From NCBI GenBank assembly GCA_002269645.1, contig NIVC01000220.1, positions 1-21,084 of the forward strand: a DNA stretch of 21,084 nt, read 5' to 3'. Shown one piece after another: positions 1 to 21,084 of this stretch. The notes below the pieces were generated by a model. It worked only from the letters and a program-made list of their open reading frames with translations, had not been told where the DNA came from and made no database searches. The DNA is from Macrostomum lignano. Taxonomy: Eukaryota. The position numbers and the translations under genes are program-made. Position 1 is the first letter of the stretch. Each line of letters starts with the position of its first letter.

Positions 1-2482
1 TGGCTCCAAATGAAGGGATTGGCGTAGAGAAATCGGGACCCAATGCTTCAGGCTCCATTCTAGAGCCTTAAGTTCACATGAAATCCACATTTATCCCCTT
101 TCTCCCCACAGAGATCCCCAAACGCTAAAGTGGTCGGGTTTTCGGCATAACGGGAGCCATTTGGCTCCAAATGAAGGGATTGGCGTAGAGAAATCGGGAC
201 CCAATGCTTCAGGCTCCATTCTAGAGCCTTAAGTTCACATGAAATCCACATTTATCCCCTTTCTCCCCACAGAGATCCCCAAACGCTAAAGTGGTCGGGT
301 TTTCGGCATAACATGAGCCATTTGGCTCCAAATGAAGGGATTGGCGTAGAGAAATCGGGACCCAATGCTTCAGGCTCCATTCTAGAGCCTTAAGTTCACA
401 TGAAATCCACATTTATCCCCTTTCTCCCCACAGAGATCCCCAAACGCTAAAGTGGTCGGGTTTTCGGCATAACGGGAGCCATTTGGCTCCAAATGAAGGG
501 ATTGGCGTAGAGAAATCGGGACCCAATGCTTCAGGCTCCATTCTAGAGCCTTAAGTTCACATGAAATCCACATTTATCCCCTTTCTCCCACAGAGATCCC
601 AAACGCTAAAGTGGTCGGTTTTCGGCATAACGGGAGCCATTTGGCTCCAAATGAAGGATTGGCGTAGAGAAATCGGGACCAATGCTTCAGGCTCCATTCT
701 AGAGCCTTAAGTTCACATGAAATCCACATTTATCCCCTTTCTCCCCACAGAGATCCCAAACGCTAAAGTGGTCGGGTTTTCGGCATAACGGGAGCCATTT
801 GGCTCCAAATGAAGGGATTGGCGTAGAGAAATCGGGACCCAATGCTTCAGGCTCCATTCTAGAGCCTTAAGTTCACATGAAATCCACATTTATCCCCTTT
901 CTCCCCACAGAGATCCCCAAACGCTAAAGTGGTCGGTTTTCGGCATAACGGGAGCCATTTGGCTCCAAATGAAGGGATTGGCGTAGAGAAATCGGGACCC
1001 AATGCTTCAGGCTCCATTCTAGAGCCTTAAGTTCACATGAAATCCACATTTATCCCCTTTCTCCCCACAGAGATCCCCAAACGCTAAAGTGGTCGGGTTT
1101 TCGGCATAACGGGAGCCATTTGGCTCCAAATGAAGGGATTGGCGTAGAGAAATCGGGACCCAATGCTTCAGGCTCCATTCTAGAGCCTTAAGTTCACATG
1201 AAATCCACATTTATCCCCTTTCTCCCCACAGAGATCCCCAAACGCTAAAGTGGTCGGGTTTTCGGCATAACGGGAGCCATTTGGCTCCAAATGAAGGATT
1301 GGCGTAGAGAAATCGGGACCCAATGCTTCAGGCTCCATTCTAGAGCCTTAAGTTCACATGAAATCCCCATTTATCCCCTTTCTCCCTACAGAGATCCCCA
1401 AACGCTAAAGTGGTCGGGTTTTCGGCATAACGGGAGCCATTTGGCTCCAAATGAAGGATTGGCGTAGAGAAATCGGGACCCAATGCTTCAGGCTCCATTC
1501 TAGAGCCTTAAGTTCACATGAAATCCACATTTATCCCCTTTCTCCCACAGAGATCCCCAAACGCTAAAGTGGTCGGGTTTTCGGCATAACGGGAGCCATT
1601 TGGCTCCAAATGAAGGGATTGGCGTAGAGAAATCGGGACCCAATGCTTCAGGCTCCATTCTAGAGCCTTAAGTTCACATGAAATCCCCATTTATCCCTTT
1701 TCTCCCCACAGAGATCCCCAAACGCTAAAGTGGTCGGGTTTTCGGCATAACGGGAGCCATTTGGCTCCAAATGAAGGGATTGGCGTAGAGAAATCGGGAC
1801 CCAATGCTTCAGGCTCCATTCTAGAGCCTTAAGTTCACATGAAATCCACATTTATCCCCTTTCTCCCCACAGAGATCCCCAAACGCTAAAGTGGTCGGGT
1901 TTTCGGCATAACGGGAGCCATTTGGCTCCAAATGAAGGGATTGGCGTAGAGAAATCGGGACCCAATGCTTCAGGCTCCATTCTGGAGCCTTAAGTTCACA
2001 TGAAATCCACATTTATCCCCTTTCTCCCCACAGAGATCCCCAAACGCTAAAGTGGTCGGGTTTTCGGCATAACGGGAGCCATTTGGCTCCAAATGAAGGG
2101 ATTGGCGTAGAGAAATCGGGACCCAATGCTTCAGGCTCCATTCTAGAGCCTTAAGTTCACATGAAATCCCCATTTATCCCCTTTCTCCCCACAGAGATCC
2201 CCAAACGCTAAAGTGGTCGGGTTTTCGGCATAACGGGAGCCATTTGGCTCCAAATGAAGGGATTGGCGTAAAGAAATCGGGACCAATGCTTCAGGCTCCA
2301 TTCTAGAGCCTTAAGTTCACATGAAATCCCCATTTATCCCTTTCTCCCCACAGAGATCCCCAAACGCTAAAGTGGTCGGGTTTTCGGCATAACGGGAGCC
2401 ATTTGGCTCCAAATGAAGGGATTGGCGTAAAGAAATCGGGACCCAATGCTTCAGGCTCCATTCTGACTCTTAAGTTCATATG
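1..2482. repeat. 161-bp tandem satellite array, ~15.4 near-identical copies, open at the left window edge
   Basis: Unit CTAGAGCCTTAAGTTCACATGAAATCC...CAGGCTCCATT recurs at 60, 221, 382 and onward (period 161). Differences are mostly 1-nt homopolymer indels. The array stops at ...CTTAAGTTCATATG (2482). Confidence 0.98.
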
Positions 2483-3030
2483 CCCTTTAAGGCAAAAGGG
2501 GTCGAATACGAGATAGTACGAGCGTATTCACAAATTTGAGCGATATTCGCTCAACATTTGAGAATATAATTTCTGTGCTTTGCAGCGACCTGAATGCAGA
2601 TGACTTCGTCGCATCTAAGCTGACAGCGGACAATATGATGCTCGCCATCAATGTCCCGCCGGTCTGCGCCGCCCGCTTCACTGCAGAGTTGATATTTAAA
2701 CATATCAACAAGGTTCTGCAGTCGGACTCCAGTGTCTTGGGCAACAACTTTAAATTGTTTTTACTCAAGGCCTGGGTCCCGCGGGGCGGCTGCGGCAGCC
2801 TAGATGCGGCGGAGCGCCACATCCAGGCACGCCATTCAATGGGCTATAATTACGTTGTCATTGCCAACCGCGACAAGCGGTGCCTTATCCGGGCGCTGAT
2901 TGTCGCCAAGGCATACGCCGATCTGCAGGCCAAGGCCATCACTAAGCGGGCTTGGCGGACTATCAAAGCCGACTCCTCACTGCAGACGAAGCTGACTGGG
3001 GAGCTTCAGATTGCTGCCAATCCGTATTCG

Positions 3031-3112
3031 GTGAGTAAAAATGTTCTTGCACATTTTAATTTGCATTTTTATTAATATACAAATGTTTTAGTCTTTATCA
3101 ACCATTGCACAG
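3031..3112 (+). other. Spliceosomal intron 1 of pPolB (82 nt, phase 0)
   Basis: GTGAGT donor, TTGCACAG acceptor, ~26% GC between GC-rich coding segments. A further 1-nt frameshift near 3140 is needed to join the 3157 ORF. Confidence 0.75.
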
Positions 3113-5048
3113 GCCGGGCCTTTCTGGGTTGACGTGCTCCTCAACTGCTCGCCGCCATGAACGCTCAGTCACCCGGCCGGGATTTCGGCGTTCGTGTGTA
3201 CAGTGCTGAGGGAGGCAACACGTGTGTGTATGCCCTGCCCGGCAACACGGTGCTGAATCTGCACCTAATTGGCGAACACTTTAACGCGGTGTGCAAGGTA
3301 CCGCCATTTTTCGGTGCTCGCCGCTATTGTGAAAGCTGCCAGCAGCCGTACGACTGCGTGTCTGGAGAACACAAGTGCGCCAACACCTGCCCTCAGTGTA
3401 AAGTGCCCGGCTCCAATTGCAAGAGCCTGCGGTGTGACTATAAGCGCTGCGCTGATTGTGGCCTCAAGTGCTACAATCAGCAGTGCTTTAACAATCACCG
3501 CCAAAAAAACCGAGCCGGCAGGTCTCGCTGCAGCTCCATACGCGTCTGCTCCAAATGCGGATATTTGGAGGAGATGAAAGCGGGCCAGAAGGAGCCGGAG
3601 CACAAGTGCGGGCATGTCAAGTGCCCACTGTGTAAACAGTACGACGAGGCCGGCTCACATTTGTGTTTCGTCAAGGCTCCCAAAGTGAAAGCTTCGACTA
3701 TGCCGTACGTGTTCTACGATACGGAAACGTACACGGACGAGGAGAAGCAGCATCACGTGCATCTGGTGACTGCCGTCACGTGCTGCGAGACCTGCTCCGG
3801 CCGGGCGTTTCCGCGCGAGACTTGCCGCCTCTGCAATGGCCTGCATAGCGCCGCCAATTGTCTGACTGGCCGCGATCTGGGGGAGGAATTCTCCAATTGC
3901 GTCAGCCACTCAGACTGCGCCTGCCAAATGGCCGATTTTGTGGCTGTGGGCCCGGCCTCGCTGAATGCGTTTTTCGCCTGGCTGAGCACAGCTTTCCGTG
4001 GCGGCGCCATTGTTGTCGCGCACAATGCATCAGGCTATGATGCGTTTCTACTGCTTGGCGCTCTGCTCAACGGCCTGGCCAAGAAGCGGCCCCAAGTACT
4101 GTTCCAGGGTAGCCGGCTAATGAGCATGACGGTGGATAAATTGGTATTTAAAGATTCGTTAAACTTTATACCAATCCCGCTTGCGCAATTCCCCAAAGCG
4201 CTGGGGCTCGCTGACACAAAGCTGGCCAAGGGGACGTTTCCCCACGAGTTCAACAAGCCGGCTAATTGGAACTACGTGGGCCCCTACCCGGCTATTGAAT
4301 ATTATGGCGGCAAAGCAAACAATGACTACGACTCCATCTGTGCTTGGCTGGCCTCGCGACAGGGCGAGTTGTTCAACTTTAATCGGGAGTATCTCGATTA
4401 TTGTTTGAGTGACACAGTCCTGCTTCGCGAGGGCTGCATCAAGTACAGGGCAATAATTGGCGACATTTGCGACGGCCTGGAACCGTTTGTTCAGGCCAAT
4501 ACGATTGCCAGTTTGGCAATGGCCGTATTTACTACTAAATTCATGGAGCCCAACTCGGTCGGCGTGATTGCCCGGCAGGCCGACCAGCAGTCATTCAAGG
4601 CGCGCAAGTAACTGGCCTATTTGAATGCCACCGAATTTGGCGGGCGGCTGCGCACCTGCGACTCGACTGGCGGCGAGGCGGTCATTCTCGGCCGCAAGGT
4701 GGACGGCTTTGATGAGGCTAGCAACACTGTTTTGCAGTTTCTTGGTTGTTTCTACCATGGCTGCGAGCAGTGCATGCCCGATCAGGATGTCGTCCACCCG
4801 CTCTGAGCCACATTCGCCACGAAACCGAGTGGTTCACTCGCGAGTTGGAGCGGCATAATTACAGTGTTCGTACAATTTGGGAACATGAATACGACGCTGT
4901 ATTGGCATCGCAGGCCGATTTTATCGCCGCAACTGCCCATCTGCGCGCTCCACTCAAGATGGAGGATGCGCTCTATGGCGGCCGCGTAGAGTGTTTTATC
5001 CCGCATGCTGTGGCCAGCGAGACTGAGACGCTCAAATATCGGGATGTG

Positions 5049-5130
5049 GTGAGTAGTGATACTACTAATATAGTAGAATATTTTGTAAAAATACAGTTTA
5101 TGAAAAATAATGCTTTATTTCAACTTGCAG
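5049..5130 (+). other. Spliceosomal intron 2 of pPolB (82 nt, phase 0), inside motif A
   Basis: GTGAGT...ACTTGCAG. Removal gives KYRDV-VSLYPTV, restoring the DxxSLYP motif. Confidence 0.93.
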
Positions 5131-5685
5131 GTCTCTCTGTACCCGACGGTGCAGTCGAAAGACCCATACCCGATTGGCCACCCGGTGCAACATCCGACGC
5201 CGCAGACGCTCAACTCTGACGCGCTGGCCAGCTACTTTAATTGGCATTGCCAAAGTGACTGTGCTACCGCCGTCGGATTTGCATATTCCGCTGCTGCCGT
5301 ACAGGGTGCAAAAGAAGCTCTTTTTTGGGCTTTGCCGCACCTGTATGGAGCAGCAGTGCGGTGGCGAGTGCTGCGACCACTCAGACGAGGAACGGGCGCT
5401 GACTGGCACCTGGGCAACGCCGGAGCTGCAAAAGGCCTTCCAGTTGGGCTACCGTCTGCAGGCTGTTCACGCGCTAGCCTACTGGACAGAGAAGCGGACC
5501 GGTCTATTCGGTGATTACGTGAATGCCTTCCTGAAGCTGAAGGCCGAATCGAGCGGCTCCCCCGGCATGTCGGATGAAGATAAGGCGGTCTATATTGCCG
5601 ATTTCTTCGCCAAGGAGGGCGTCACGCTGGACAAGGTCGAACCCAACCCAGGACTTCGCTTTGTAGCGAAAATCTTTTTGAATTC

Positions 5686-5757
5686 GTAAGTATTCATAAA
5701 TTTTGTTTTTTAAATGATTTTCTTCTACTAACAGTAGCTTTTCTTTTCACTACACAG
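5686..5757 (+). other. Spliceosomal intron 3 of pPolB (72 nt, phase 2), inside motif B
   Basis: GTAAGT...CTACACAG. Removal gives KIFLN-S(TC|G)-LWGKF, in frame with the 5807 ORF. Confidence 0.94.
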
Positions 5758-6045
5758 GCTCTGGGGCAAATTTTGTCAGCGTGACGACCTGACATCGACC
5801 GAGATTGTGTCCAGCTACGAGGACTGGCTCGCCCGGCTGACCGACCCCAACCTCAAAGTCAAGGCCTGCGAACCGATTGGCAGCGAGTTTATGCTGCTAG
5901 AGTACCGGCACCGTTACTTTAATCAGCGGCCATTCAGGTACTCCAATGTGCCAATCGGAGTCTTTACGACCACGCAGGCCCGGCTGCGCCTGTACGAGGC
6001 ATTGGAGGGGCTCGGCGAACGGGCCATTTACTGCGACACTGACTC

Positions 6046-6130
6046 GTAAGTATTGCATTGGAAAAATTCTTTTAGAATTGAATAGTTAGCATGTGGAACT
6101 AATTATCTCGTTTTTCTCTCCCCCACACAG
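6046..6130 (+). other. Spliceosomal intron 4 of pPolB (85 nt, phase 2), at the end of motif C
   Basis: GTAAGT...CCACACAG. Removal gives YCDTD-S(TC|G)-VVYRH, continuing to SLGMWTDE. Confidence 0.94.
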
Positions 6131-6538
6131 GGTCGTTTACCGGCATTCCGAGGGCCAATGGGAGCCGCCCCATGGCACGAGCCTCGGAATGTGGACCGAT
6201 GAGGTGCCCGCAGGCAGCCGGATGACCGACTTTGTAAGTGGGGGCCCAAGCTCTACACTTACATTGTCGAGGATGCGGCCGGTGTCCGCAGCCAAGTCCT
6301 GAAATGCAAGGGCATCCGCCTGACTCCGGAGATACGGGAGCGTAGCGATGACTTGCGCAACACCCTGCTACACGGCGGCTCTCTGCAGCTGCCGCAGTTT
6401 CAGTTCAGGCGCGACAAGGCGTCTTGTACCATACACACGATCAGTATGGACAAGACGTTTCAGCGCGTGCTGACGAAACGCGTGTACGGGGCCTGCAGCA
6501 GGCCTTATGGCTATAAATAATGCTGACTGACAATTCAA

Positions 6539-7260
6539 TGTACATTTTGCATTATAAAATTAGTAAAATCTATTTGTTGTACATAATTTGCATATCAATG
6601 TACATAAAGCATTTTTGCATTGTAGCTCGTACTATTGCCAAATTTATCAGCGTGAATCTATTTGTTGTACATAATTCATGTACATAAAGTATTTTTGTAT
6701 TGTATGCGGTGAAATTGCCTATGTAATTACGAGTATCTATTGTACATATTTTGCGTGTCAGACCTGCTTAAAATCATTTATGAAGAGAAAAATATTGAAA
6801 AACAATGTAAAATTTTCCGTTTATTCTATTTGCTGGTAATGTACATAAATTTTTTCCTGTAATATGCTACTGATTTATTGTAAATATATCTTCTTTGTAA
6901 ATAGTTTATATACGATGTGAGCTGTACAATTAGTTGACTCATTTAGATGAGATTGTACACCAATTCTCACCTCTGCGAACAACTGTACATGTAGTAGGGT
7001 TTCGAGTTGTACATGTAATCTTGGTGATTCATACAGAGCGCGCCGGCCGTCTGGGGAAGACACTGTACATGTAGATTAATGTAGAAGTATGTACTGCGTA
7101 CATATAGAATTGGGGATAGAACATGTACAATTTGGGATAGATAGGGATTAATGTACATGGGATTAATGTACATATCCATTTGAGATAGATAGGGATTAAT
7201 GCAGTACATGGATTAATGTACATATGCAAGTACATATAGAAATATGCTATGTATACATAT
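6539..7260 (+). repeat. AT-rich TGTACA/TGTACATA-dense region with short internal duplications (putative pPolB 3' UTR or flank)
   Basis: About 16 TGTACA hexamers in ~700 bp. Duplicated blocks at ~6566-6624 vs ~6656-6704 and ~7131-7178 vs ~7180-7228. Confidence 0.8.
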
Positions 7261-7631
7261 TTCACGCTTAGAATAGCGTTTTCATATACTACTTACTTCA
7301 TTTTCAAATAGTAGTATAATTTGCGTTTTTTGCGTCAAATCTGTCTAAAAATCGACAACAATCTGCACGATACGTAGTCTTAAAACTACAAATTTTATTA
7401 ATGATTTCCAGAACTGGCTTGTTACAGGCGGTCCAGGTGCTGAGTTAAGACGTTCAGTTAGACTTGCCATAAACAGTCAAAGATTAAATACAAATATTTT
7501 AAGTTCAGTTTTGCCGGTAAAAGTGTCACAACACGCTCAAAATCCCATTCAAGCAAGCATCAGTGTTTAATAAGTAAACACATTCGTGTCTTAAATCAGA
7601 TAACAAGTGACAGTTGAAGGTTTTTAGATGT

Positions 7632-7805: not shown

Positions 7806-7817
7806 TAGGCTACGAAA

Positions 7818-8414
7818 ATGCCTGGAAGTACGCCAGCATCGCCAACTAAAGGAGTTGGTAAAACGGTTTCGAGCGACAAAGCACCACCGCTTGCGATCTC
7901 GTCGAAATCAGTCCAAGCGACAAAGTCGGCAACAGCGACAGCGCAGAACCCAAGCGCACAAGTATCGAGAGGACAGCAAGTTGACATCGAAAAACTCGAT
8001 GAAAGTTCGAACTTCCAGAGGTGGTTGGACCGATTCACACTGTGCAGCGAACTCAACGGCTGGCAGGACGACACGAAAAATAAGCTGCTGCTGATTAAGC
8101 TCAGTACCAAGCTGTACGACGCATTGGCAGATCGAGCCGCTCCCAAGAAGCCGGGAGAAAAGAGCTTCGATGAACTGACCAAACTACTGGCCAGCATCCT
8201 GGAACCAAAGACGTTCGTCATGGCTGAGAGATTCAATTTCCAGCATATCACTCGCACGGCATCAATGAGCATTCGTGAGTATGCACAGCAACTCTGCATG
8301 CAGGCAGACAAGTGTCAGTTTGGCCTATCCAGAGATGAGAGACTGAGAGAAAATTTAAACCTTTCAATCATTCGAAATCATGATCCTTGCCCCATCACCT
8401 TCATGCAACCTTGA
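7818..8414 (+). mobile_element. gag: Truncated Ty3/Gypsy (Mag/K02A2.6-like) gag ORF
   Basis: FQRWLDRF...KLYDALADRAAPKKPGEKSFDELTKLL...EPKTFVMAERFNF...SIREYAQQL...ADKCQFG...ERLRE matches the Mag-type Gag pattern. Similarity ends at ~8360. No zinc knuckle or pol. Confidence 0.82.
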
Positions 8415-9287: not shown

Positions 9288-10001
9288 CTAGGTTTTGATG
9301 AACACAGCCCATCCGGGTCCGGTCAGGCTGGCTGGCGGGAAGGCGAACGGCAGCAGGCGGCAGGCGAGCAGCTGCTTGGAGAAGACGGCGCCGCTGCAGT
9401 TGGCTCTGGCGCTGCACTGGAGCAGGCAGTCCGCGTCGGACTGGGCAGCGGCCGGCCAGGACGAGTCGACGGTAGAGGTCACCGTGATGTCCGAATTCTT
9501 CAGCACAGTGTATGCATTGTTGCCTGAAAGTTGTGTAATTTTATTAAGATTTTCTCTCAGTTGAAATTCTAAGAGGCAGCGTCGAGCTAACTCACTCGGG
9601 AAGGTCATAGCAAACACGGAGTTGATTGAGAAGCCGCCACAAATCTGCTCTGGGTTTCCCGTGCACTGCCTGTTGCACATGCTATCACTGAGCTGTCCGT
9701 GGAGTCCGTAGGAGCTGCCGCAGAAGCACTGCTTGCCGACCTGCACGCCGAAGTAGGGAAAGCGGCCCAGAGAGCAGACGTTGCTGCAGAACTCGTGCGA
9801 CATGTTGTTGAGGCTGTGCACTAGGTCGCCAACACCAATACTGTACGGCCCCAGATTTTTTAACCCTTTCAGACCTGTCATATCTCTGTTCGAGTTATCA
9901 CCGTCTCGATAACAACCAACGTAGGAGAAATGAGCCACCCTGCCGGCTGCACAGGTCAGGAGGCCGCACAGCAACGCCGACTCTAACAGTGAGATTCTCA
10001 T
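9288..10001 (-). CDS. Secreted WSC-domain protein with C-terminal PAN/Apple-like Cys domain, paralog 1 (2 exons; intron 9524-9595; ~213 aa spliced)
   Basis: Signal-peptide-like N-terminus. WSC pattern YVGCY.D...C...C...YFGVQ.G.QCFCG...C...C.G.....CGG..NSVF. Intron GTGAGT...TTTCAG is 72 nt and in frame, so the ORF track reads through it. Same intron position as paralog 2. Confidence 0.88.
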   Translation of the reverse strand: MRISLLESALLCGLLTCAAGRVAHFSYVGCYRDGDNSNRDMTGLKGLKNLGPYSIGVGDLVHSLNNMSHEFCSNVCSLGRFPYFGVQVGKQCFCGSSYGLHGQLSDSMCNRQCTGNPEQICGGFSINSVFAMTFPSELARRCLLEFQLRENLNKITQLSGNNAYTVLKNSDITVTSTVDSSWPAAAQSDADCLLQCSARANCSGAVFSKQLLACRLLPFAFPPASLTGPGWAVFIKT

Positions 10002-10083
10002 TCTAATTCAAGAATAGTTACGGGTTAAAGCTATCGAATCTCAACATCCGGAGCTTGGAAGCAATTCTCTCACGAGCGTCATC

Positions 10084-12420: not shown

Positions 12421-13139
12421 CTAAGTTTTGATGAACACAGCCCACTCCGGTCCGGTCAGGCTGGCTGGCGGGAAGGCGAACGGCAGCAGGCGGCAGGCGA
12501 GCAGCTGCTTCGAGAAGACGGCGGCGCTGCAGTTGGCTCTGGCGCTGCACTGGAGCAGGCAGTCCGCGTCAGACTGGGCAGCGGCCGGCCAGGACGAGTC
12601 CACGGCAGAGGTCACCGTGATGTCCTTCAGCACAGTGTAGGCATTGCTTTCTGGAAGTTGTGGTTCCAACAAAAACCTACTCAATTAGATAAATTCGCAA
12701 CTCCAAGAGAACGGAGCAATGTTAACTTACTTGGGTAGTGCAGAGCGAACACGGAGTTGATGGTGAAGCCACCGCAAATCTGCTCTGGGTTTCCCTTGCA
12801 CTGGCTGTTACATTTGCTATCGCTGAGCTGTCCGTGGAGTCCGTAGGAGCTGCCGCAGAAGCACTGCTTGCCGACCTGCACGCCGAAGTAGGGGAAGCCG
12901 AACAGAGAGCAGAAGTTGCTGCAGACCCCGAGCGTCATGTCAGGGCTGTACATTAATGCACCGTCGGTGATGTACGATCCCAGATTGTTAAGTCCTTTCA
13001 GTGTTTTCAGGCCTGTCAAGTCTCTGTTTGGGTTAGCGGCGTCTTGGTAGCAACCGACATAAGAGAAATGAGCCACCCTGCCAGCCGCACAGGTCAAGAG
13101 GGCGCACAGCAACGCCGACTGCAGCTGGGAAATGCTCAT
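12421..13139 (-). CDS. Secreted WSC-domain protein with C-terminal PAN/Apple-like Cys domain, paralog 2 (2 exons; intron 12651-12730)
   Basis: Exon 1 MSISQLQS...FALHYP, phase-1 intron GTAAGT...TTCCAG (80 nt), exon 2 (K)SNAYTVLK...WAVFIKT*. Clear paralog of 9288-10001. Confidence 0.9.
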
Positions 13140-13223
13140 TGAGAAGAACTACAAGGCGACAGTTTAAGTCTTTGGAGTCTTAATGATAGTGCTAGTGCTA
13201 TCTTAGTTCTTAGTCGAATCAGT

Positions 13224-16279: not shown

Positions 16280-17213
16280 ATGTCAGCCGAACAGCCACAA
16301 GACTCCAGCCAGATGACAACGGTGGTCTGAGCAAGACGGGCAGCGGAAAGAGCTCTCTAGCCAACACCCTAATGAACGAGAAAAGCTTCATAGTCGGAAA
16401 CGGCTGATCTGGCAGACGAACCAGTGCGAGGCGCAGATGCGAACGCGTCCGCGGTCGCAGCCTGCTGGTCTGGACACTCCCGGAACCATGGACTCCAAGG
16501 ACGTTAACATGCCGCAGGGTGAGCTGCTGCGCACCCTGAACTGTCCGTGCGGCGTTGACGCCTTTCTCGTGGTCGCCAGAGCGGACGTGCGCTTCACCAA
16601 CGAAGAGTGGGCCATCCGCCAGACTGTGGACGTGTTCGGCCCGGAGTCGTGCAAGCGCGTCATCGTGGTGTTCAGCAGAGGTGACCATTTTGACAACGAC
16701 ATCAACGAATTTAAAAATAAAGAGCTGAAGGTCGCGCGAGAAGAAATTCCTGGATTCGACAAGATGATGAAGGACTTCGGAGACCGCTATGTGCTGATGG
16801 ACAACGGCAAGAGGTGCGACACGGAAGTGCAGGAACGGCAGGTGGCATCGCTGATGGGCCTTATCGATGAGGTATCGAAGCTGAACCCGAGCAAGTACAA
16901 GTACCTGGATAAGCAGACTGAGGAGCGGAAACGCCGAGAGGAGGCTGAGGCCCAGAAGCAGAATGACGTAGAAGATGGAAAAGATGGAAGCCGAGATCAA
17001 GCTTTTAAAGAAACAGCATCAGCAGCAGCAGCAGCAGCATCAGCAGCATCAGCAGCAGCATCAGCAGCAGCATCAGCAGCATCAGCGGCAGCAGCAATCA
17101 ATATATGCGCAGCGCCAACAGCCACAGCTCAGTTTAGGCTTTGTGGGCATTGTGAGCAGTCTCGGACAGGAGGCTTGAGCAATCATTGCAAGTCCTGTGG
17201 TCGACGCTGCTAA
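16280..17213 (+). pseudogene. AIG1/GIMAP-family GTPase, copy 1 (intronless, frameshifted in the 5' part)
   Basis: ATG at 16280. P-loop SKTGSGKS out of frame, G3 DTPG, G4-like FSRGD, family motifs RFTNEE, VFG, YVLMDN. Open from 16437 to 17213. Indels at ~16325-16475 may be real or assembly errors. Confidence 0.82.
17014..17096 (+). repeat. GCA/CAG imperfect microsatellite in the GIMAP C-terminus (poly-Ala/Ser in frame, poly-Gln/His in an alternative frame)
   Basis: (CAG)n interrupted by CAT. Equivalent tract in copy 2 at 21047-21084. Confidence 0.9.
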
Positions 17214-20108: not shown

Positions 20109-20310
20109 GGTACGAGGACCACATTAAAGAATGTTGTGCAGGTACTACCTGCTCTTGACAATGGCAAATAGAGTTTATTGATGAGCTTTACCTAAAACTC
20201 GAGGAACTACTCTGTTCAAAAAACTCTATATATACAGCGGGTGTTCAAAGCTCCAAGAACAGAAAACTACTAAGCCATCTCTAACCTACAGAGAAGACTG
20301 CACTACAGCA

Positions 20311-21084
20311 ATGTCAGCCGATCAGCCGCAAGACTCCAGCCAGATGACAACGGTGGTGCTGATGAGCAAGACAGGCAGCGGAAAGAGCTCTCTAGCCAAC
20401 ACCCTAATGGAGGAGGAAAGCTTCAAAGTCGGAAATGGCATGAGTCGCAGACGAAGCAGTGCGAGGCGCAGATGCGAACGGTCCGCGTCGCAGCCTGCTG
20501 GTGGTGGACACTCCCGGAACCATGGACTCCAAGGACGTTAACATGCCGCAGGGTGAGCTGCTGCGCACGCTGAACAAGTGTCCGTGCGGCGTTGACGCCT
20601 TTCTCGTGGTCGCCAGAGCGACGTCCGCTTCACAAACGAAGAGTGCCTGGCTATCCGCCAGACTGTGGAAGTGTTCGGTCCGGATCGTGCAAGCGCGTCA
20701 TCGTGGTGTTCAGCAGAGGTGACCATTTTGACAACGACATCAACGAATTTAAAAATAAAGAGCTGAAAGTCGCGCGAGAAGAAATTCCTGAGCTCGACAA
20801 GATGATGAAGGACTTCGGAGACCGCTACGTGCTGATGGACAACGCAAGAGGTGCGACCCGGGTATGCAGGAACGGCAGGTGGCAACGCTGATGGGCCTTA
20901 TCGATGAGGTATCGAAGCTGAACCCGAGCAAGTACAAGTACCTGGATAAGCAGACTGAGGAGCGGAAACGCCGAGAGGAGACTGAGGCGCAGAAGCAGAA
21001 TGACGTAGAAGATGGAAAAGATGGAAGCCGAGATCAAGCTTTTAAAGCAGCAGCAGCATCAGCGACAGCAGCAGCAGCATCAGC
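20311..21084 (+). pseudogene. AIG1/GIMAP-family GTPase, copy 2 (frameshifted, 3'-truncated by the window)
   Basis: MSADQPQDSSQMTTVVLMSKTGSGKSSLANTL, then LLVVDTPG, CPCGVDAFLVV, VIVVFSRGD in successive frames. Several 1-nt indels at positions different from copy 1. Confidence 0.82.

Follow-up and report, generated by a model that had tools for sequence, protein, structure and literature searches.

A spliced protein-primed DNA polymerase gene and its probable Polinton-derived element in Macrostomum lignano

The closest described relatives of the element reported here are the Polintons or Mavericks (eupolintoviruses, with a PolB of the 'Alpha' adintovirus type; for the Alpha and Beta PolB classes see PMC8502044), elements of ~15-25 kb that carry an integrase, a major (MCP) and a minor (mCP) capsid protein, an ATPase and a protease. 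Their DNA polymerase, a protein-primed enzyme of family B (pPolB), has a PF03175 domain and a phi29-like fold, and the priming and vOTU domains of pPolB are described in PMC11161782; their core open reading frames (ORFs) are taken to be intronless, and the intact vertebrate Mavericks treated in PMC8097293 are without introns. We analysed a 21,084-nucleotide stretch of DNA of the marine flatworm Macrostomum lignano (contig NIVC01000220.1; hereafter the window) that carries a pPolB gene interrupted by AT-rich segments, and find that this gene belongs to a multicopy element sharing with Polintons the PF03175 polymerase, the phi29-like fold, long terminal inverted repeats (TIRs) with trinucleotide-repeat tips and a 6-bp target-site duplication (TSD). 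In contrast to Polintons, the element measures 8.8-10.4 kb, has conserved spliceosomal introns, and shows none of the integrase, MCP, mCP, ATPase and protease; its ends, ACTAC...GTAGT, also differ from the Polinton ends reported in PMC8097293 (AGT2/ACT2, AG3/CT3 and AC3A/T(GT)3). Its lack of an integrase and of the capsid module, its end motif and its size thus place it outside the Polintons, and yet it is built like one. We consider it likely that the gene is the pPolB of a reduced, capsid-less and integrase-less M. lignano element of Polinton descent, and that the copy in the window is decayed and truncated at its 5' end.

A spliced polymerase gene family under purifying selection

Protein-database searches with the window gene return automatic M. 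lignano gene models as best matches, and a 492-amino-acid ORF of the window has at least 89 matches in its own genome (87 of 202 candidates scored), which fall into two identity classes, ~90-99% (subfamily A) and ~55-68% (subfamily B). The window locus itself, including its junction with a satellite array, recurs at two further places (L021, G000:C1486, 99.8% identity; L022, G000:C221, 98.4%), so that duplication inflates the number of copies counted; PMC5730564 reports that an assembly of M. lignano is heavily redundant. We aligned 21 copies taken from the top of each class: the window, 8 of subfamily A and 12 of subfamily B. Fourteen are open in all five exons equivalent to those of the window, and only when read in splice phase; the other seven are broken. 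Between subfamilies dS exceeds 2 and is saturated. Each of the 91 pairs that the open copies form, within and between subfamilies, has a dN/dS of 0.05-0.14. The pPolB is under strong purifying selection.

An earlier, sequence-only note on this DNA had read four AT-rich GT-AG introns of 72-85 nt in the window, and the reading stands. All four positions are occupied in 21 of 21 aligned copies of both subfamilies, with GT/AG ends throughout save for one A copy whose intron-1 donor is mutated. Donors are GTGAGT or GTAAGT, 3' ends are CAG, and GC content is 24-34%, compared with 53-59% for exon sequence; identity between subfamilies A and B falls from 0.63 in exons to 0.24 in intron cores. When the contigs of four runs (X1, X5, X6 and X14) were compared with window positions 2400-7500, intron 2 was skipped by contigs of X1, X5 and X6 (joint 5048/5131), intron 3 by contigs of X5 and X6 (5685/5758), and intron 4 by contigs of X1, X5 and X6 (6045/6131). 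Intron 1 is skipped in X6, where the joint is given as 3031->3115 with one letter between; we read this as 3030/3113 plus one substitution. X14, whose type is not recorded and whose cover of the introns is DNA-like, has none of the four joints. Loose contig ends of X5 and X6 carry a B-type exon joined across intron 3, and a B-type GenBank entry annotated 'hypothetical protein' (ALD16274.1, our P0206) runs continuously across introns 2-4 with its polymerase motifs uninterrupted; the intronless junction found no match in the genomic loci examined. Introns 1-4 are therefore real and functional in the family and are removed from transcripts, and by their GT-AG ends, GTRAGT donors and removal they are U2 spliceosomal introns. 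A genome search with intron 2 gave 35 of 35 matches, most at known polymerase loci and seven on contigs outside the list of polymerase matches.

The earlier count of four introns holds for the window and appears incomplete for the gene. Upstream of the window-equivalent exons, all 14 bounded polymerase rows, which represent 13 elements because one row is an outer nest, begin with a short exon, followed by a micro-exon of 51 nt (A) or 45 nt (B) and an intron of 69-79 nt, with phases equal in A and B, and in complete copies a TATA box precedes these exons. Two further introns thus probably flank the micro-exon, which would give complete genes six introns; a complete subfamily A gene would have ~1,310 codons, on exon lengths summed by hand.

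The element's pPolB matches PF03175 (DNA_pol_B_2) at E=1e-43, and its exonuclease region is conserved in the pPolB alignment; domain scans of the element revealed no helicase family. A structural model of P0206 (pLDDT 80) is closest in fold, among PDB entries, to phi29 polymerase (E=1e-21), and close also to the polymerases of tectiviruses, bidnaviruses, adintoviruses and adenoviruses. The nearest named proteins from organisms other than M. lignano, in a sea anemone, a sea spider and a damselfly, are 32-36% identical. In a FastTree phylogeny of 74 rows, from which the length filter removed P0003, subfamilies A and B form a clade (support 100) whose sister is P0059 (support 100), with weak support for deeper forks. 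As P0059, 41% identical to the family and the nearest relative outside it, is a single ORF on a metagenomic contig, the introns appear to be lineage-specific. Viral contigs searched with P0206 gave no match, and metagenome contigs gave seven loci of 23-34% identity, too distant to be informative.

One further pPolB gene of this class occurs in the M. lignano genome, decayed, AT-rich and without introns (L116:3650-5940, G000:C234); its identity to the spliced family is ~31%. We considered this gene as part of an ACTAC-ended element and rejected the idea: the ACTAC motif there is that of another, separate repeat, and the gene stands alone as a relic.

Element structure and the source of its insertion enzyme

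Copies of subfamily B run from ACTACTA to TAGTAGT and those of subfamily A from ACTACGTA to TACGTAGT. Self-comparison reveals TIRs of ~0.25-0.45 kb for A copies and, for most B copies, of ~0.9-1.4 kb, with identities of up to 100%. We took a census of TSDs in 45 genomic stretches, keeping pairs of TIR tips whose flanks matched over at least 4 nt: 20 pairs were kept, 19 with a match of exactly 6 bp and one in a microsatellite, and together they present 18 distinct hexamers. Unnested polymerase-bearing elements measure 8.8-9.9 kb, with one more of 10.4 kb and one extended to 13.8 kb by an insertion. In subfamily B a PC4-like gene lies head-to-head with pPolB, and across elements PC4 is the usual but not constant companion of the polymerase. 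None of the 20 census rows matches the integrase, mCP, MCP, protease or ATPase of resident Polintons by tblastn, and an integrase hidden Markov model found only its positive control among 7,607 peptides. B elements leave no room for a morphogenetic module, and one A left arm carries 38 indels, four of them multiples of three. Taken together, this describes an integrase- and capsid-less multicopy TIR element, apparently self-copying and apparently inserted by a borrowed enzyme.

Six of the 20 census rows are derivatives that have these tips but lack the polymerase. The polymerase-less derivatives examined are non-coding, palindromic or hold a nested Mariner. Many such derivatives are long palindromes (L178, L071, L074, L076, L041-L042), and at L178 the flank is inverted as well; because of that inverted flank, we suggest that L178 arose by fold-back at an end. 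The derivative at L076:1-6492 (G000:C1944), ACTAC-tipped and with a 6-bp TSD, lies at the edge of a resident Polinton's integrase match. The left arms of A-type elements vary (L049/L115, G000:C1263; L043, G000:C157): some contain a dUTPase and PC4 together with an ORF of low complexity, and others are non-coding. At L037 (G000:C2286) a 4.4-kb ORF, which from its motifs we take to be of non-LTR-retrotransposon type, is inserted in frame in the first pPolB exon.

These features can be assembled into a life cycle. Host RNA polymerase II would transcribe pPolB from its TATA-type promoter region, and the introns would be spliced out, as introns 1-4 are; the enzyme so encoded, which bears a priming domain at its N terminus, might then copy an excised linear element from the ACT-repeat tips of the TIRs, along the lines of the linear-form copying model for Polintons (10.64898/2026.07.28.741278). 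An rve/DDE integrase supplied in trans would insert the copy at cuts spaced 6 bp, preferring nAYRTn targets. After the virion module was lost, the element might have lived in the nucleus only, where introns would be tolerated and could have become fixed before subfamilies A and B split.

As for the source of that integrase, the M. lignano genome holds complete Polintons with an rve-chromo integrase, capsid-like genes, a protease and ATPase-like ORFs, with at least 114 integrase and at least 93 MCP-like matches scored. The main resident family has AGTAGT ends, a polymerase of another class in one 1,312-codon ORF, and 6-bp TSDs at 6 of 10 end pairs and in one derivative; with only six of the ten tested pairs showing a TSD, part of the flanks read for this family may be something other than real insertion targets. 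Just two usable ends came from 13 stretches of a second resident family. ACTAC elements insert at nAYRTn: 26 of their 36 strand readings have A as the second base and none has G as the third, whereas in the main resident family A is the second base in 17 of 52 (Fisher p=0.0004), or in 5 of 14 when verified TSDs only are counted (p=0.025). The main resident Polinton, at first our favoured helper, was lowered on this difference, and the helper integrase is probably not that of the main resident family. Resident Polintons also carry an ORF resembling TATA-binding protein, beside PC4 in a complete element (L101:7219-7782, G000:C130; Pfam TBP E=1e-22) and, in similar form, in the second family (L110:8469-9107).

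The abundance of these complete Polintons raises the possibility that the ACTAC elements are their satellites, mobilized by the resident rve-chromo integrase and perhaps by resident capsids. The common TSD length fits such an arrangement, as do ends that share the frame A-S-T-A-S (AGTAG versus ACTAC), PC4-like genes that are related in both at ~30% identity, and the location of one polymerase-less derivative in a resident integrase gene; but the difference in target bias, the unlike end motifs, TIRs with no similarity to one another and the other class of the intronless resident polymerase make it unlikely. We find it harder still to believe that pPolB is the cargo of a non-autonomous cut-and-paste transposon from another superfamily with 6-bp TSDs, in whose movement protein priming plays no part. 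Such a transposon would account for the lack of an integrase in cis, the non-canonical ends, the palindromic target bias and a load that varies from PC4 and dUTPase to nested Mariner or non-LTR insertions. However, strong purifying selection on pPolB in both subfamilies indicates that spread depends on it; trinucleotide-repeat tips with a 6-bp TSD are Polinton hallmarks according to PMC8097293, and the palindromic fold-back derivatives suggest replication from the ends.

The earlier note had left a choice between a domesticated host polymerase and a Polinton-derived lineage dependent on splicing. Host domestication, with passive amplification by segmental duplication, would agree with the host-like promoter region and introns, with the transcripts, and with the loci, the window's among them, that were duplicated together with their flanks; but copies that are dispersed among differing insertion sites, bounded by their own TIRs and flanked by 18 distinct hexamers, seven of 21 of them broken, leave it very improbable, and with the conserved introns, spliced contigs and purifying selection they bear out the Polinton-derived alternative. 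As regards the AT-rich segments, the death of the window copy and the entry of introners into Polinton-like viruses (PLVs; PMC12166617) might suggest that these are not functional introns and that neutral insertions or introners entered a gene already dead. Yet the positions and GT/AG ends are common to copies separated by dS>2, the segments are removed in transcript contigs, and introns at different positions, which in introners would be alike, share only weak, low-complexity similarity; to this reading we assign next to no probability.

Several points weigh against the reduced Polinton-derived element that we favour. The TSD census kept only flank-matched pairs and so gives no failure rate. 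The RNA type of the four runs is a guess, none being recorded as RNA, they were compared as contigs rather than reads, and X1 looks partly like DNA, with introns covered too; the two upstream introns are supported by sequence only. The integrase search scored 114 of 2,227 candidates, and no ACTAC-ended carrier of an integrase was seen among the loci examined, most A-type TIR matches not having been inspected. The extrachromosomal form, the activity of the polymerase and transposition are inferred, not directly observed.

The window copy and its neighbours

The window copy is a 5'-truncated pseudogene (Table 1). Its left TIR is missing, the 5' end having been replaced by satellite whose unit, among the genomic loci examined, matches only the two near-identical duplicates of the window locus; similarity to other pPolB copies begins at 2486. 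An open frame of ~1240 codons, as put forward earlier, does not exist: the supposed start ATG consists of the last bases of the satellite and its frame stops at 2537, and against an open copy the gene shows five frameshifts and a premature stop, so the protein is not present in the window. Nor is there any sign of expression of the window copy itself, since the contigs listed at its premature stop carry other letters there. The terminal-protein/vOTU label of the first remnant exon is inferred from PMC11161782. Beyond the element, a 20-bp minisatellite precedes each of the AIG1/GIMAP genes.

Table 1. Features of the 21,084-nucleotide window
Feature	Position	Strand	Remarks
161-bp satellite array, 15.5 copies	1..2482		outside the element; abuts the truncated element; supplies the apparent ATG at 2480
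pPolB exon remnant (third exon of complete copies)	2486..3030	+	falls by its position in the N-terminal terminal-protein/vOTU region; frameshift near 2518
Spliceosomal intron 1, 82 nt, phase 0	3031..3112	+	skipped in 1 of 4 contig runs
pPolB exon: Cys-rich region, 3'-5' exonuclease, VSR-like insert, start of motif A	3113..5048	+	PF03175 E=3e-13; frameshifts near 3138 and 4803, stop at 4609
Spliceosomal intron 2, 82 nt, phase 0, within motif A	5049..5130	+	skipped in 3 of 4 contig runs
pPolB exon to motif B	5131..5685	+	PF03175 E=1.5e-5; frameshift near 5240
Spliceosomal intron 3, 72 nt, phase 2, within motif B	5686..5757	+	skipped in 2 of 4 contig runs
pPolB exon, terminates in motif C (YxDTDS)	5758..6045	+	
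Spliceosomal intron 4, 85 nt, phase 2, at end of motif C	6046..6130	+	skipped in 3 of 4 contig runs
Last pPolB exon	6131..6520	+	frameshift near 6241; stop 6518-6520
Right TIR of the element	6895..7378		ends ...TACGTAGT at 7378; matches both ends of TSD-bounded copies
Gag-like ORF fragment	7809-8414		just beyond the element's right end; DUF7083 E=1e-6, weak Retrotrans_gag
Tandem pair of intron-bearing WSC-PAN domain genes	9288-10007, 12421-13148	-	domain scan covered the first only
Tandem duplicated AIG1/GIMAP GTPase genes	16317-17213, ~20185-21084		second apparently broken

Relation to described systems

The earlier note gave Polinton descent as one of two options, the one that is supported here, and missed that the window copy is dead, that the element lacks integrase and capsid genes, and that its ends and target preference deviate from those of the resident Polintons. 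Polintons are taken to be intronless and integrase-carrying, whereas the M. lignano family keeps a spliced pPolB under strong selection with neither integrase nor capsid, in a laboratory model animal that allows replication intermediates and new insertions to be observed. It shows one way in which a virus can turn into a plasmid-like transposon of the nucleus. Screens based on ORFs or capsids would overlook or mis-call such elements. The full-text literature searched yielded no account of the element and none of spliceosomal introns conserved in the pPolB of an animal; supplements and Repbase, outside that search, could contain it, and the available portions of two M. lignano papers (PMC4604429, PMC5730564) do not mention it. 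We tentatively raise the possibility, which we hold with less than even confidence, of an undescribed kind of animal element: a nuclear, host-spliced replicon with a protein-primed polymerase only (pPolB and PC4 between ACT-tipped TIRs), selected for long enough to form two subfamilies, supporting non-coding derivatives and inserted by a separate integrase, in effect a Polinton split into a replication and an integration part.

Transpovirons, stand-alone Polisuviricotina replicase modules and Polinton-derived cytoplasmic linear plasmids are likewise capsid-less linear TIR replicons of Polinton descent, as described in PMC11161782 and 10.64898/2026.10.13.758929. Unlike these, the M. lignano element resides in the nucleus, is integrated into chromosomes with TSDs and contains introns; nor does its polymerase resemble the transpoviron pPolB derivative, in which, according to PMC11161782, the exonuclease is missing and a superfamily 1 helicase is fused on. 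The PLVs AHEV_PLV1 and Ca_PLV1 are also integrated without a detectable integrase, and supply in trans has been suggested for them (PMC11296320), but they encode a capsid, whereas the M. lignano element has no capsid gene and a spliced pPolB. As regards introns, group I introns are reported in PLVs (PMC12220804), and introner-bearing eupolintoviral proviruses of dinoflagellates show that introns of spliceosomal type occur in Polinton-like elements too (PMC12166617); those introners are young, repeated transposon-introns, whereas the introns of M. lignano are old, mutually unrelated, conserved in position and spliced. The minimal, polymerase-only architecture is a more novel part of the M. lignano element than its introns.

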